Assembly (NCBI GenBank): GCA_029261675.1
Contig: JAJDBA010000173.1
Coordinates: forward strand, 1-48,151
Length of the DNA stretch: 48,151 nt
Origin: Nitrospinaceae bacterium
Lineage (GTDB): Bacteria; Nitrospinota; Nitrospinia; Nitrospinales; VA-1
Direction of reading: 5' to 3'
Position numbers and translations under genes: made by a program. The notes beneath the pieces were generated by a model, which had not been told where the DNA came from, did no database searches, and saw nothing but the letters and a program-made list of their open reading frames with translations. Shown piece by piece: positions 23,606-41,886 of this stretch. Position 1 is the stretch's first letter, and each line of letters begins with the position of its first letter.

Positions 23606-24979
23606 GTGGTTACTCAAAATAAAATTCTACAAGGCAAAATTTTAATCGTTGATGACGAGCCGAATAACGTTGCCTTACTTGAGCAGACTTTGCAGGGGGT
23701 GGGGTATTCCTCTTTACGAAGCACTATGGATCCGCGCGAGGTCTGTGGTATTTTTGAGGAGTTCAAGCCTGATCTTATTTTGCTGGATATGAATATGCCA
23801 CATATGGACGGCTTCCAGGTCATGCAGAAACTAAAAAAAATTGACCCCAACTCTTCCGCTTCCATTTTAGTTTTGACTGCCCTCCAAGAAAGTGAAACCC
23901 GATGGCGAGCATTGCAAGCCGGAGCCCAGGAGTTTCTGACAAAACCTATTGATCTCGCGGAGGTGATTTGCCGTATTCAAATTATGTTGGAAATAAGGAA
24001 GCTCCGTTTAGAAATTGCCACTACAGAGAAAGAAGAATTTCCGGTTGTAGGGAAGTCGCCAGCTATAGTTCGCCTGAAAGAAGTTATTCATACGCTGGCT
24101 AATTGCAGTGCGGATGTTTTGCTTCTCGGTGAAACAGGTACCGGGAAAGACTTGGTCGCACGGTGTCTGCATGATTTAAGTGATAGGAAAGAAAAGAATT
24201 TTGTCGCTATAAATTGTGGCGCCATACCTGAAACTATTATTGAAAGTGAACTCTTTGGGCATGAAGCAGGTGCTTTTACCGGAGCCAATTCACGCCGTAT
24301 CGGCAAATTTGAATATGCTGACGGAGGCACCGTGTTTCTAGATGAAATAGAAAGCATGCCTATCGACTTACAGGTAAAGCTTCTGCGGGTTATTCAGGAG
24401 CGGACTGTGGAGAGAGTTGGTTCTAATCAGTCCATTCCCATTGATGTACGTATTATTGCTGCCACTAAAGTCGATTTAAAGGAAGCCAGCGACCAAGGAA
24501 AATTTCGTCAAGACCTCTACTACCGGCTGAATGTTGTGCAAATTATTCTTCCACCTCTTCGAGAACGTCAGGAAGACATCTCTCTTTTATTTCAGCATTT
24601 TGTTTTGCAAGCCTGTGCGAGACACAATCTACCGACTCCCATTTTGTCAAAGGGGTTAATGAGCCAGCTGAGCTCAAACAAATGGGAAGGTAATATTCGA
24701 GAGCTAAAAAATGAAGCAGAGAAGCATGTTCTGGGTATGGGGCTTGGACTTTCAGACCTGACTGCTGATTGCCAGGAAGCTCTTTCAAAAGATAAATCTA
24801 ATGAGTCCTCTTTTACACTTACCGAGCAGATGGATGTTTTTGAAAAGAAAATTTTGGAACAGGAACTACTTCGTCACGAGGGTAATATTAAAAACACCCA
24901 TGCCGCACTTGGTATTCCCAGACAAACTCTTGTTGATAAAATGAAAAAACATGGGTTTGATAAGAAGAATTTTCGCTAA
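23606..24979 (+). CDS. Sigma-54-dependent response regulator (NtrC family: REC, AAA+ sigma-54 interaction domain, Fis-type HTH)
   Basis: REC 'ILIVDDEPNN...LILLDMNMPHMDGFQV...VLTAL...FLTKP'. Walker A 'GETGTGKDLVA'; sigma-54 contact loop 'GAFTGA'; Walker B 'VFLDEIE'. C-terminal HTH 'GNIKNTHAALGIPRQTLVDKMKKHG'. Confidence 0.93.
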   Translation: MVTQNKILQGKILIVDDEPNNVALLEQTLQGVGYSSLRSTMDPREVCGIFEEFKPDLILLDMNMPHMDGFQVMQKLKKIDPNSSASILVLTALQESETRWRALQAGAQEFLTKPIDLAEVICRIQIMLEIRKLRLEIATTEKEEFPVVGKSPAIVRLKEVIHTLANCSADVLLLGETGTGKDLVARCLHDLSDRKEKNFVAINCGAIPETIIESELFGHEAGAFTGANSRRIGKFEYADGGTVFLDEIESMPIDLQVKLLRVIQERTVERVGSNQSIPIDVRIIAATKVDLKEASDQGKFRQDLYYRLNVVQIILPPLRERQEDISLLFQHFVLQACARHNLPTPILSKGLMSQLSSNKWEGNIRELKNEAEKHVLGMGLGLSDLTADCQEALSKDKSNESSFTLTEQMDVFEKKILEQELLRHEGNIKNTHAALGIPRQTLVDKMKKHGFDKKNFR

Positions 24980-25062
24980 TAGCCAGCCCGCTTACCAAAT
25001 AGATATTCCCCTCGAACAACCAATCCCCCAATACTACTCGTAAGTAAGTAGCATCCCCATTA

Positions 25063-25111
25063 ATAACGGAATTTCGTTATCGTGCTCTATGAATAAACGG
25101 AATATCGGTAA
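25063..25111 (+). promoter_or_regulatory. Pair of imperfect palindromes, candidate enhancer (UAS) for sigma-54 promoter 1
   Basis: ATAACG-gaattt-CGTTAT (25063-25080) and TAAACG-gaatat-CGGTAA (25094-25111), 31 bp apart, about 95-125 bp upstream of the -24 element. The same pair recurs at 30913-30962. Confidence 0.6.
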
Positions 25112-38629: not shown

Positions 38630-41600
38630 AAGAGAGATTAAACAGTTTCAGCAACGATAAGCTTGGTTCTGGAAATTTTGTGCTATTGGTAGGGTCTTTT
38701 ATTTCCATTGTGTTGTTATTTTTAATGGGTTCCTGGGTATTAAAAAATATTGAAAAGGAAATAAAATCAGGTTTAGCGGATCAGTTGCAAGTATCCCTCC
38801 AATCCAACATAGAGACCTTGAATATATGGGCCCAGCAGGAAATTCAAGCCGTCAATTTTTGGGCCAATGAACCTCGTATTCGTGAAAAAATATTCAATCT
38901 GAAGAAAACATTCAATGAGAGCAATCAGAATATAGATGTCTTACAAACCTCCCCAGATATGCTTGGTTTACGCGAAATTCTGAGACCGGTAAGCCAAGAG
39001 CATGAGCATATTGGTTTTGTTGTCATAGACCCCAAGGGAAATCAAATCGCTGCTCTTTTGGATGAGCCTGTGGGGAAAATACAAGTGAGTCTCCATTCTG
39101 ATTTTGTAAGTCAGGCGCTTAAAGGGAAGCCGATCATATCTCTTCCTTTTAAGGCAGTAGTTAAACTGCCGGATGCCAAGAACGTTTTTAAAGATGGGCA
39201 ATCTACCATGTTTAGCGCCGCCCCTGTTCGTGATGATGATGGAAATGTTATCGCGGTGTTGTCTTTTAGGATCAAACCTTGGCTTGATTTCACTCGTGTG
39301 ATGCAGATTGCCCGAGCGGGAGATACTGGCGAAACCTATGCCTTTAATCGTAAAGGGAAAATGATTTCTAAAAGCCGTTTTTTAGATAGTCTAAAAACAG
39401 TTGGCCTTCTCCCTAATGTACCTGATGCCCAGTCAATTCTCAATGTTGACATTCGTGATCCTCAAGGGAATCTATTGGATGGATATCGCCCGTCTGTTCC
39501 GCGCGAACAACAACCTTTGACTCTAATGGCGAAAAGCGCCCTTTCCGGCGAGTCGGGTTACCATGTAGATGGGTATAACGATTATCGAGGCGTGCCTGTA
39601 GTAGGGGCTTGGGCATGGCTGGGTGAATATGGATTTGGAATCGCCACAGAAATGGATGTTAGTGAAGCTTTGCGGCCTTTGAACAACCTTCGTAAATTTT
39701 TTCTTCTGCTATTTGCTCTACTTGTAACGATGACGGCAGTTTATTGGTTCAAGCGATTTTGGGAATTGAAAAAGGATGCCGAATTTAAAATATTGGAGGT
39801 AAAAAAAAGAACCTCCGACATTCGAGTCAAGACAATATTGGAAAATGTGTTGGACGGCATAATTACCATTACCCCTTTTGGGATTGTAGAGACTTACAAC
39901 CCGGGAGCAGAAAGAATATTTGGATACTCTTCAGAGGAAGTCGTTGGTGAGAATGTATCTATGCTCATGCCGTCACCTTATGCAGAAGAGCACGATGGAT
40001 ATCTGGAAAAATATTTCCGTACCGGAAAATCGACAATAATTGGTGTCGTTCGGGAAGTGGTTGGAAGACGCAAGGATGGAACAGAGTTTCCTATGGATCT
40101 AGGGATAAGTGTAACAAATTTGGAACACGAACAATTTGTTACCGGGGTCGTTCGAGATATTTCTGAGCGTAAGCTGATCGAAGAAAGGCTTCAAAATAAA
40201 GCCAATTATATCAAAATGCTTCATTCGGTTGCCATTGCCGCAAACGAGTCTAACAGCTTTGAAGAGGCTATGAAAACTTGTTTAGAGAGCATATGTAAAC
40301 TCACTCATTGGCCGGTGGGGCATTTATACCTGGCTGAAAGGGATCGTGCTGAACCGCTCCTTTCCACCGACTTATGGTATATGGATGATCCTGACCGCTT
40401 TCAAACCTTCAAAGATATTACGGAAAAGGTGAACCTTAATATAGGTGAAGGGCTGCCGGGGCGTGTTTGCGAGAGTCGCGAACCGTTATGGATAGAAGAT
40501 GTGACTCGCGATTCAAATTTTTCGCGAGCAAAAATGGCTGAGGATATTGGCGTAAAAGGAGCTTTTGCTTTTCCGGTGATGATAAAAGGTTCAGTGGTAG
40601 CTGTCCTTGAGTTTTACTCTGCAAGCCCGGCTAATCTTGATTTACGTCTTTTGGATATAATGAAAAATATAGGCCTGCAAACGGGCCGACTGATTGAGCG
40701 TTGGGAAAATGAAGCGAATTTAAAAGAGAGCAAAATTTCTGCAGAAAATGCCAACCGGGCCAAATCTGAATTCTTGGCGCGAATGAGTCATGAACTACGT
40801 ACTCCTATGAACTCTATTTTAGGGTTCACGCAACTTTTACAAATGGATAAAAAAGCTCCCCTAGCCGATTACCAGCAAGCGAATATAGAAAATGTCTTAT
40901 CAGCAGGTAGTCATCTCTTGATGCTTATTGATGAAGTGCTGGATCTTTCGAAAATTGAATCTGGCAATATAAAATTGTCCACAGAACGGGTTGATATCGT
41001 TCTCATTGTGGATAATGTAGTTTCTATTTCGCAGTCACTTGCGAATGAAATGAACATATCTCTGAGGTACGAAGCAATTTCGACAAAGAGTTGTTTTGTT
41101 GAGGTCGATCCGCTTCGATTTAAACAGATTGTTTTGAACTTGATTTCCAATGCAATCAAATACAATAAACCTAGAGGGTCTGTGATTGTTTCTTTTAAAG
41201 AACAGGATGATGGCAGGATGCGTTTAGGGATAAAGGATACAGGGAATGGAATTCCTGAAGACAAGCAAGGCAGACTCTTTAAACCTTTTGAACGCTTGGA
41301 TATAAAGGCTGAGAAGATTGAAGGGACTGGTATTGGCTTGACCATATCGAAACAGCTCATAGAGTTGATGGGAGGAACCATAGGCTTCGAAAGTGTTTAT
41401 GGCGAAGGCAGTGTTTTTTATATTGATGTTCCTGTTTCAGATAAAGCACCTGTGCCATTAGAGATTGAATCACCTTCGGACTCTTCTTTCGCTTCTTCGA
41501 TCATTGATGGTAAAAAGCAAGTTTTGTACATTGAAGATATTCCTGCAAACGTGGAGTTGGTGAATCAAATTTTGGTGAGCAGACCGCATATAGAATTATT

Positions 41601-41886
41601 ATCGGCACCCAATGCTTTAGATGGTATCAAAATAGCTGAGATCCACATCCCTGATTTGATTTTAATGGATATTCATTTGCCAGGGATGGATGGTCTTACA
41701 GCTTTTAAAAAGCTTCAAGCTCTCAATGTGACTAAAGACATTCCGATTATTGCTTTGACAGCAGATGCGATGGATGGGGATATAAAAAGAGCCCTGGATA
41801 TGGGATTCAATTCCTACATCACTAAGCCAATTAATGTACCTAAGTTTTTGAAGGAAGTAGATAAAGTTTTAGCACCGAGCGTCTGA
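38626..41886 (+). CDS. Periplasmic Cache-like / FixL-type PAS / GAF hybrid histidine kinase (array member 4)
   Basis: The start overlaps the previous stop (ATGA). TM1 '[22 protein letters not shown]', then a periplasmic region of about 330 aa with Cache-like '[33 protein letters not shown]', then TM2. PAS '[44 protein letters not shown]'. GAF; H-box '[26 protein letters not shown]'; REC. Confidence 0.9.
39829..40173 (+). other. FixL-like (putatively haem-b-binding) PAS domain inside kinase 38626..41886
   Basis: Strong resemblance to my recollection of the Sinorhizobium meliloti FixL haem-PAS: '[52 protein letters not shown]...FFTGFIRDLTERE'. Candidate proximal His = His456 (CAC 39991-39993). 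Confidence 0.65.
41599..41808 (+). repeat. Near-identical 210-bp receiver-module repeat, copy 3
   Basis: 7 mismatches/210 nt against copy 1, all at what appear to be third codon positions or conservative changes. In frame within the REC domain of kinase 38626..41886. Confidence 0.9.

Follow-up and report, generated by a model that had tools for sequence, protein, structure and literature searches.

The gene cluster that is the subject of this work occupies positions 23606-41886 of a 48,151-nt stretch of Nitrospinaceae DNA (referred to hereafter as the window). Its module types are known, and analogous wirings exist in the Che3-CrdA, CheA3-CheS3, Wsp, LuxU-LuxO, and RpfC-RpfG systems. The positions are filled by ten genes, all on the plus strand, that were identified from the list of open reading frames (ORFs) and the Pfam scan. 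An NtrC-type activator gene comes first and is followed by two operon-like blocks. Block 1 consists of a 61-aa ORF, a receptor of the methyl-accepting chemotaxis protein (MCP) type, CheA, and CheW. Block 2 consists of a REC-REC-HD-GYP protein and four paralogous histidine kinases (HKs). This composition had been claimed in the first-pass annotation of the DNA and is borne out by Pfam, where all the families anticipated for the ten proteins were recovered (Bac_globin, MHYT, PAS, HD/HD-GYP, Sigma54_activat, CheW, and Hpt).

In the ocean, nitrite is oxidised mainly by Nitrospinota, which flourish at very low oxygen levels. The literature search found no paper on oxygen (O2) or nitric oxide (NO) sensing in Nitrospinota. 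Judged from sequence, the cluster is a real, conserved signalling gene cluster of marine Nitrospinota, and it is a concrete candidate for such sensing. In the reading that we prefer, with a probability of about 0.5, it would be a Nitrospinota-specific island that responds to O2, NO, or redox state, regulates its own transcription, and has hydrolysis of cyclic di-GMP (c-di-GMP) as its enzymatic output.

The Vibrio relay runs from LuxN, LuxQ, and CqsS (and the NO-responsive HqsK) through LuxU to LuxO. It is similar to the cluster in having several hybrid kinases with differing sensors and an NtrC-type sigma-54 activator. However, LuxU is a stand-alone Hpt and the relay has small RNA targets, whereas the sole Hpt of the cluster is the P1 domain of CheA and the predicted targets are the cluster's own operons and the HD-GYP protein. 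In the Xanthomonas RpfC/RpfG system (cited in PMC9218911), a hybrid kinase acts through an Hpt on a REC-HD-GYP protein, and RpfC has its own Hpt and senses the diffusible signal factor (DSF). Unlike the window, that system lacks a chemosensory arm, haem sensors, and control by sigma-54.

The Che3/CrdS-CrdA system of Myxococcus xanthus (PMC3147164) is similar in that an MCP, CheA, and CheW without CheY adjoin an NtrC-type sigma-54 activator. That activator is also acted on by a separate HK, and an HK gene lies directly upstream of the activator gene in the related loci L022, L025, L031, and the P0009 locus. Che3 differs in having CheB and CheR and in lacking haem sensors, an HD-GYP protein, a kinase bank, and a globin in CheA. 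Transfer to the activator is demonstrated in Che3 (PMC3147164), whereas in the window it is predicted. The CheA3-CheS3 system of Rhodospirillum centenum (PMC3868531) has a CheA-type kinase that acts on the receiver of a REC-HK protein, comparable to kinase 1 of the cluster, with a non-motility output. CheA3 is, however, a hybrid with a C-terminal REC, CheY3, CheB, and CheR are present, the output is cyst formation, and there is neither a c-di-GMP enzyme nor a sigma-54 element. The Wsp system of Pseudomonas (WspA/WspE/WspR; PMC8846402) is a chemosensory pathway that ends in a receiver-controlled c-di-GMP enzyme. It differs in its REC-GGDEF diguanylate cyclase output, membrane receptor, CheA-REC hybrid, and lack of haem sensors. 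Wsp also has CheB and CheR homologues as Che3 does, and neither was found by Pfam in the window blocks.

The chemosensory inputs named in the review of c-di-GMP sensing are Wsp-type (alternative cellular functions, ACF) and type IV pili (Tfp) only. The full-text literature search found no description of a globin within CheA or of a CheA-to-HD-GYP pathway. The first-pass annotation had stated that no characterised system with this wiring was known, and none was found in that search, although the analogous wirings above exist. No earlier description was found of a truncated globin at the P2 position of CheA, an HD-GYP output of a chemosensory cluster, or a sigma-54-driven small ORF.

Activator and sigma-54 promoters

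The features of the cluster are listed in Table 1. The activator matches Sigma54_activat at 1e-71, with a Walker A motif at aa 175 and GAFTGA at aa 222. A -24/-12 element and the same pair of upstream sites had been claimed ahead of each block, and both were recovered by the pattern searches. TGGCA-N6-TTGCW has exactly two matches in 48 kb on both strands, where 0.29 are expected, and two or more matches were found in 4 of 100 shuffles. Both elements lie 54-65 nt ahead of a start codon. Within the window, the palindrome ATAACG-N6-CGTTAT is confined to the two upstream intergenic regions, and AAACG-N6-CGGTAA is likewise confined to them. Both regions exhibit a site-to-site spacing of ~32 bp, which is roughly three helical turns, and a distance of 122-125 bp from the first site to the -24 element. 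The cluster thus exhibits, at the sequence level, the GG-N10-GC promoters, upstream sites, and activator with GAFTGA and a helix-turn-helix (HTH) of a sigma-54-type regulon.

The listed start of the HD-GYP gene (TTG 31021) lies 5' of the gene's own promoter. Since the second promoter would then be inside the listed ORF, the real start is taken to be ATG 31105, which has a GGAG ribosome-binding site and gives 506 aa as in L023.

The -24/-12 elements of both blocks are kept in L023, and so is the upstream site pair of block 1. TAACG-N6-CGTTA was considered as a phylum-wide activator site and was rejected; of the relatives only L023, a close one, has it, which shows that conservation of the activator site does not span the phylum. 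The sigma-54 element, by contrast, is conserved in relatives. Homologues of the 61-aa ORF with 53-73 aa were identified in L023, L022, L025, and L027, each directly behind a -24/-12 element, and the P0009 locus has a 67-aa ORF in the equivalent position. The recurrence of the small ORF behind this element in four diverged lineages as well as in the window provides independent support for the predicted sigma-54 control, which the first-pass annotation had also claimed. The conserved pattern of the small ORF is MIYEVRV...W..F. The word-based homology search with the small ORF yielded four close relatives only, and its AlphaFold2 (AF2) model is a hairpin with a long helix at low confidence (predicted local distance difference test score, pLDDT, of 68.6) that is too weak for a fold search. 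The scans for intrinsic terminators and sigma-70 promoters were at or below shuffle expectation, and the Rfam and tRNA scans gave no matches.

Table 1. Features of the signalling gene cluster, with positions in the window.
Feature	Position	Strand	Basis
NtrC-type activator, REC + Sigma54_activat + HTH_8	23606..24979	+	Pfam, motifs
Upstream site pair, block 1: ATAACGGAATTTCGTTAT (25063-25080) + AAACGGAATATCGGTAA (25095-25111)	25063..25111	+	pattern search
Sigma-54 -24/-12 element, block 1: TGGCACATCTATTGCT	25188..25203	+	pattern search
61-aa protein of unknown function, first gene after sigma-54 promoter	25253..25438	+	homologues; no Pfam family
Soluble chemoreceptor, three Aer2-type haem-PAS + MCPsignal	25549..27567	+	Pfam, PDB matches
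CheA: P1/Hpt, truncated haemoglobin, P3, P4, two P5/CheW-like	27658..30270	+	Pfam, motifs
CheW	30306..30734	+	Pfam
Upstream site pair, block 2: ATAACGAAAAATCGTTAT (30913-30930) + AAACGAATTTCCGGTAA (30946-30962)	30913..30962	+	pattern search
Sigma-54 -24/-12 element, block 2: TGGCAGGCATATTGCT	31035..31050	+	pattern search
REC(divergent)-REC-HD-GYP, predicted c-di-GMP phosphodiesterase, 506 aa	31105..32625	+	Pfam (HD_5/HD), motifs
Kinase 1, REC-HisKA-HATPase	32655..33884	+	Pfam
Kinase 2, MHYT (3 repeats)-Cys-rich PAS-HisKA-HATPase-REC	33927..36572	+	Pfam
Kinase 3, GAF-HisKA-HATPase-REC	36662..38629	+	Pfam
Kinase 4, hydrophobic N-terminal segment, weak dCache, FixL-type haem-PAS, GAF, HisKA-HATPase-REC	38626..41886	+	Pfam

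Related loci

Most relatives at 50-90% identity retain the activator, the sigma-54-linked small ORF, the globin-CheA, a FixL-PAS kinase, a REC/kinase, and HD-GYP. Across the relatives, fusions are reshuffled, parts are split or reordered, and some are lost. The chemosensory arm is again linked with HD-GYP and kinase genes, in differing fusions, in relatives at just 50-70% identity.

The CheA of L023 is 90% identical, and this locus consists of the activator, the 61-aa ORF, CheA, REC-REC-HD-GYP, REC-HK, and the MHYT kinase, which is an orthologue of kinase 2. L023 has neither receptor nor CheW. A few codons from each end of the receptor gene are still present there, so the receptor was deleted secondarily. 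The P0006 locus (CheA 88%) has a 548-aa receptor and no CheW, while both receptor and CheW are present in L029 and L030 (globin segment 93%). The P0009 locus (CheA 73%) consists of an HK, the activator, the 67-aa ORF, a receptor, CheA, a VTT protein, CheW, REC-HK-REC, and REC-HD-GYP. L027 (CheA 72%) has a 53-aa ORF, has REC, HK, and HD-GYP as separate genes, and has REC-GGDEF and CheR in addition. A VTT/DedA-family membrane protein lies between globin-cheA and cheW in two lineages, i.e., the P0009 locus and L027 (12628-13392).

L022 and L025 (CheA 51-55%) share REC-GAF-PAS-HK, the activator, CheA, (CheW), a Cache-PASx4 hybrid kinase with two FixL-type PAS domains, REC-HK, and REC. Beyond these genes, L022 has a 73-aa ORF and then REC-HD-GYP; in L025 there follow another REC-HK, another activator, and a 73-aa ORF, at which the DNA examined ends. 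L031 (globin segment 77%) consists of an HK, the activator, a three-PAS receptor, CheA, and CheW. L032 (1513-12087) has no CheA in 12.7 kb and encodes a fusion of 751 aa, Aer2-PASx2-HAMP-MCP-globin, in which the same globin as in CheA is C-terminal. This fusion is flanked by HD-GYP, REC, HDOD, REC-HK, GAF-PAS-HK-REC, and REC-GGDEF.

CheA and its truncated haemoglobin

CheA has 870 aa, for which Pfam identified Hpt (P1, aa 5-97), Bac_globin (4.8e-15; aa 144-258, nt ~28087-28431), H-kinase_dim, HATPase_c, and two CheW-like domains. The phospho-His motif FRTIHTIKG of P1 was found together with P3, P4, and two P5-like domains. The P2 domain, where CheY and CheB dock, was not found in CheA by Pfam, and the interval between P1 and P3 is occupied by the globin, with a low-complexity linker on each side (46 and 53 residues). 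The best PDB matches of the globin all belong to group 1 (Synechocystis GlbN at 1e-33, Tetrahymena, Chlamydomonas, and HbN), as expected from the trHbN-like globin claimed earlier, and group-2 globins match the insert at only ~1e-5. TyrB10, GlnE11, HisF8, PheCD1, and the Gly-Gly motifs of group 1 (N) are kept in the window clade. By these motifs, the CheA insert is a complete group-1 truncated haemoglobin. Its E10 residue is Lys, where Synechocystis GlbN has His. Lys at E10 is found in Chlamydomonas THB1.

The exact look-up of the window CheA sequence returned no record, and the genome-collection scan with the single CheA query returned just stand-alone truncated haemoglobins from unrelated taxa. 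CheA homologues number in the thousands, and all the named close ones come from metagenome-assembled genomes of Nitrospinota/Nitrospinaceae. The globin is present in 48 of the 133 CheA-family proteins fetched. HisF8 is kept in nearly all globin-CheAs, while TyrB10 and GlnE11 vary in more distant clades. The metagenome scan with the globin alignment yielded mostly single-domain globins, together with six globin-CheA loci, two receptor-globin fusions (L032 and L059), and, at L045, a single unfused globin with HD-GYP and FixL-PAS matches nearby. In the 50%-identity library, multi-globin proteins head the list and the CheA clusters are represented by members without globin.

The closest relatives without a globin are 66% identical in P3-P5 and have the architecture Hpt-Hpt-P3-P4-P5-P5 (P0030), where the second Hpt corresponds in position to the globin of the window CheA. 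A rough neighbour-joining (NJ) tree of CheA cores (distance method, midpoint root), which was used only to assess how the forms are interleaved, exhibits interleaved Hpt, Hpt-Hpt, Hpt-globin, and Hpt-Hpt-globin forms. Module exchange is thus concentrated in the interval between P1 and P3, where a globin is also consistent with ordinary taxis signalling.

Related group-1-type globins in metagenomic proteins are fused to MCPs (globin-PASn-MCP and MCP-globin), to CheW (P0257 and P0267), to Hpt (P0250, 332 aa), to an ODP diiron domain, and to cytochrome c554 (fusion set P0257, P0267, P0250, P0273, and P0219). The fusions to MCPs, CheW, and Hpt point to a class of truncated-globin-coupled chemosensory proteins, which was not found in the globin or aerotaxis reviews that were checked. 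The 2020 globin review gives bacterial chimeric truncated globins for groups O and P only. The 2026 aerotaxis review gives only receptors with an N-terminal sensor globin, plus one in-silico Corallococcus MCP with PAS and Bac_globin. The globin-coupled sensors (among them HemAT, EcDosC, and AfGcHK; PMC13401364, PMC7475203) are similar to the window CheA in joining a haem globin to a signalling output and include chemotaxis proteins and kinases. However, their sensor globin is N-terminal and of the 3/3 type, whereas the window globin is of the 2/2 group-1 type and internal, so that CheA falls outside this family.

The position of the haemoglobin where CheY would dock suggests that CheA may sense gas directly, which fits the relatives that kept globin-CheA and lost the receptor gene. 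A very improbable alternative is that the globin is no sensor and serves instead as a tethered enzyme or buffer (an NO dioxygenase, or an O2 scavenger that protects or tunes the haem-PAS domains) or as a docking module in place of P2. The distal pocket with TyrB10 and GlnE11 matches that of group-1 globins that detoxify NO, E10 is Lys, the globin is attached solely via long low-complexity linkers, and related globins are fused also to CheW, ODP, and cytochrome c554, all of which would suit such a role. However, the repeated and independent-looking fusions to MCP, CheW, Hpt, and CheA fit a signalling input better. TyrB10 and GlnE11 are also replaced in some clades where HisF8 is kept, which argues against strictly conserved NO-dioxygenase chemistry.

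Chemoreceptor

The receptor has three PAS units (aa ~31-152, 153-276, and 274-397) that are joined directly to the MCP signalling domain. FHK[ND]P and the downstream Trp of Aer2-type haem PAS, which the first-pass annotation had pointed out, are present in all three units. PAS2 matches the Aer2 PAS structures 6ceq, 3vol, and 4hi4 at E ~1e-14. Compared with the Aer2 PAS domains of P. aeruginosa and V. cholerae, PAS2 and PAS3 show 34-41% identity; they are 72% identical to each other and constitute a tandem duplication of 363 nt.

The simple hydrophobicity scan exhibits no transmembrane-like stretch in the receptor, and the Pfam scan exhibits no HAMP family; PAS3 passes straight into the signalling helix. 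The C-terminus is without the aromatic pentapeptide x-[HFYW]-x2-[HFYW]. The alignment to Tsr, which belongs to the 36-heptad class (36H), has one 7-residue gap per arm, and this suggests a heptad class other than, and shorter than, 36H. No cheY, cheR, cheD, or cheB of the Aer2/F7 context was found by Pfam in either block. The Aer2/F7 family is characterised by PAS-HAMP repeats, a C-terminal pentapeptide, 36H, and a cheY/cheR/cheD/cheB cluster (PMC7184735). The window receptor is similar to the Aer2 of P. aeruginosa and V. cholerae (PMC7184735) in the FHKNPAHQR segment with Trp and in being soluble, and multiple PAS domains are also present in V. cholerae Aer2. It differs in having three PAS units and in lacking a Pfam HAMP, the pentapeptide, and the gene context. 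Therefore, the Aer2 sensor domain is present, but the receptor lies outside the Aer2/F7 family as defined there.

HD-GYP protein and kinases

The HD-GYP domain matches the active enzyme PmGH (4mcw) at 3.5e-64. HD is found at aa 366 and HHEKWDGSGYP at aa 421-431, as in HD-GYP phosphodiesterases, and the domain is predicted to be catalytically intact. Its two receivers differ in kind. REC1 is divergent, since EE replaces the acidic DD pair, and the phospho-Asp position is kept. REC2 is 57% identical to the activator REC, while other receiver pairs outside the kinase 2-4 trio are only 17-32% identical. L022 and L025 have a receiver of this activator/REC2 type in fusions with HisKA-HATPase and with HD-GYP. 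The REC of kinase 1 is the most CheY-like one (36% to the CheYs of canonical loci), and in the PDB its sequence comes closest to 6oap (2.5e-31), an input receiver from a dual-sensor histidine kinase.

Among kinases 1-4, the HisKA-HATPase cores share 68-74% identity (68-73% between kinase 1 and kinases 2-4); against the one large Cache-PASx4 hybrid kinase that distant relatives have, identity is 41-47%. Kinases 2-4 also resemble one another in their C-terminal receivers (79-85% identity). By these identities, the kinase bank is a lineage-specific expansion in which one recently duplicated transmitter was grafted with different sensors. One catalytic core with four sensor sets amounts to a natural experiment in the convergence of inputs on c-di-GMP and sigma-54 transcription. 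Another REC-HisKA-HATPase gene of the window (4987-6123) is 39% identical to kinase 1 over the full length and 45-51% identical to the cores of kinases 2-4.

The MHYT domain claimed earlier is recovered in kinase 2 by Pfam at 8.7e-41 with three stretches, and its motifs are found at aa 71 (MHFT), 135, and 202. The ligand of MHYT is hypothetical only in the literature. The PAS_4 domain that follows MHYT has C391, C420, C431, C434, and C462, including a CxxC, all of which are kept in L023. This Cys-rich PAS could be a metal or Fe-S site and a further redox input.

The FixL-type PAS claimed earlier lies in kinase 4 (aa ~400-515) and matches the FixL haem domain 1d06 at 1.7e-30. EHDGYL and RKDG..FPM are identical between the two, and one Arg is also aligned. 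In FixL, EHDGYL holds the proximal His, and the Arg of that alignment is the ligand-sensing one. Kinase 4 is, nevertheless, no part of a FixL/FixJ system: it is a Cache-PAS-GAF hybrid, and no FixJ-type regulator was found among the ORFs scanned. FixL-type PAS domains are also present in cluster kinases of L022, L025, and L027. Additional possible inputs are two GAF domains and a weak periplasmic Cache domain. The GAF of kinase 4 (aa 583-664) is a marginal match to Pfam GAF_NLP (25.2 bits, cut-off 24.1), the GAF of plant nitrate-signalling NLP proteins, which is a curiosity given the likely nitrite-oxidiser host. The claim of a multi-input gas/redox network stands as far as the concentration of haem and gas-type modules is concerned; for MHYT, the ligand is just putative.

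The kinases are without Hpt, and the P1 domain of CheA is the only Hpt that Pfam found among the window ORFs scanned. The shared cores suggest that the four kinases probably share partner specificity. These findings bear on an explanation that we regard as decidedly unlikely, in which CheA would be a multi-input phosphorelay hub. P1 would be charged by P4 under the Aer2-type receptor and CheW array and also by the receivers of the three hybrid kinases (MHYT, GAF, and FixL-haem), the globin would gate P1 by O2 or NO, and P1 would supply the receivers of the sigma-54 activator and HD-GYP, comparable to LuxN/LuxQ/CqsS, LuxU, and LuxO. The closely similar terminal receivers of kinases 2-4 are consistent with this, as is the variation of the sister CheAs precisely in this interval (Hpt, Hpt-Hpt, Hpt-globin, and Hpt-Hpt-globin), and P0250 in the representative library is a separate Hpt-globin protein. 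However, a stand-alone Hpt could lie beyond the window, C-terminal receivers of hybrid kinases can be phosphate sinks or auto-regulators, and we know of no precedent for a CheA P1 that accepts phosphate from hybrid-kinase receivers. If true, the cluster would provide the first example of a gas-sensing CheA and of a chemosensory kinase that serves as a shared Hpt.

Proposed mechanism and signal output

In the preferred reading of a self-regulated O2/NO/redox island, the ligand state of the haem sensors (O2/NO) would set the activity of CheA and the kinases. Phosphoryl groups would arrive at the two paralogous receivers, i.e., the activator REC and REC2 of the HD-GYP protein. The phosphorylated activator would bind the WAACG-N6-CGKTA sites, ~95-125 bp upstream of -24, and switch on both blocks. 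The outcome would be transcriptional feedback and a changed c-di-GMP level, and hence a change between attachment and planktonic behaviour. CheA-P1 may be the donor, either straight to the receivers of the activator and the HD-GYP protein or by way of kinase 1 and its N-terminal REC; alternatively, the kinase bank may be the donor through an Hpt, possibly P1. The receptor and CheW would be an optional input, and through its globin CheA would itself act as a sensor.

It is plausible that CheA feeds the REC domains of the cluster instead of a flagellar motor. The one line of support for an output of CheA other than CheY is the genomic linkage of the chemosensory arm with HD-GYP and the kinases. 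The main rival is that block 1 is an aerotaxis system merely co-regulated with block 2. Block 1 would act on the flagellar motor with CheY, CheB, and CheR encoded elsewhere, and block 2 would be a separate RpfC/RpfG-like c-di-GMP network. We regard this as somewhat unlikely.

Several findings fit this rival, and some of them also weigh against the island. The Hpt-Hpt CheAs such as P0030, whose core is 66% identical to that of the window CheA, are located in canonical REC(CheY)-CheX-CheA-CheW-CheB loci, and a diverged globin-CheA (P0069) is also located in a canonical CheY-CheX-CheA-CheW-CheB locus. The window CheW is 57-78% identical to the CheWs of related loci and 66-70% identical to those of canonical loci. 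With such canonical-locus kin of CheA and CheW, a taxis output via a CheY encoded elsewhere is possible, and CheY, CheB, and CheR could be encoded beyond the 48-kb window. CheR is nearby in L027, and the 8 kb downstream in L031 contain no HD-GYP. In Pseudomonas and Vibrio, receptors of the Aer2 type work in Che pathways (PMC7184735).

Other findings count against parts of the proposed mechanism. No sigma-54 element was found 5' of cheA in L022, L025, or L024, of which the first two weigh here. The receptor arm is not obligatory, since the receptor and/or CheW were lost in close relatives that keep globin-CheA. Truncated haemoglobins are often enzymes, not sensors, and those of group 1 are commonly NO dioxygenases. 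With linkers this flexible, it is mechanistically hard to see how the globin could control the kinase allosterically. If all the kinases depend on the activator, the circuit requires basal expression or another kinase to start.

Against two separate systems, both blocks have one type of upstream site pair in common, and P2, the docking domain for CheY and CheB, is absent from CheA. HD-GYP and REC/kinase genes are linked to globin-CheA in many diverged loci with varied gene order. The P0009 locus in particular is on a single strand without large gaps, from the small ORF, receptor, CheA, and CheW through to REC-HK-REC and REC-HD-GYP.

Neighbouring genes

The first-pass annotation had claimed that CheY, CheB, CheR, and CheZ are absent. 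This holds for both blocks, but a REC protein and a CheC/CheX protein are encoded ~8 kb upstream in the same window. They belong to a same-strand trio (14905-17065) of a 125-aa REC (14905-15282), a 204-aa CheC/CheX phosphatase (15279-15893), and a 385-aa PAS-HisKA-HATPase protein, which is also present in L023 and the P0006 locus. The 125-aa REC was considered as an orthologue of the canonical-locus CheY and was rejected, as it is only ~27% identical.

An ABC1 atypical kinase gene (20096-21628) lies directly upstream of the cluster and adjoins the activator gene in L023. In the gene cluster of the Corallococcus PAS + Bac_globin receptor, an ABC1 gene is likewise reported, with Nitrospinae among its nearest homologues (PMC6194562). 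The interval from the ABC1 kinase to the activator contains genes for a molybdoenzyme of the sulfite-oxidase type (Oxidored_molyb + Mo-co_dimer) and for a small protein that binds haem (21681-23383); L023 and the P0006 locus have neither at this point. MoaE and MoaC are encoded at 12234-13446.

A GAF-HK-REC-REC hybrid kinase gene lies at the start of the window (19-2142). A 669-aa protein (43864-45873) has the unusual architecture of two universal-stress-protein domains and two PCP_red (protochlorophyllide reductase 57-kD subunit) repeats. A UvrD-type helicase on the minus strand (6140-9508) appears to be split into two ORFs ~260 nt apart, i.e., a 478-aa N-terminal helicase and a 556-aa protein with UvrD_C and PD-(D/E)XK. 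These ORFs adjoin an 882-aa PD-(D/E)XK protein, and the split may represent a disrupted AddAB-like gene or a sequencing frameshift.

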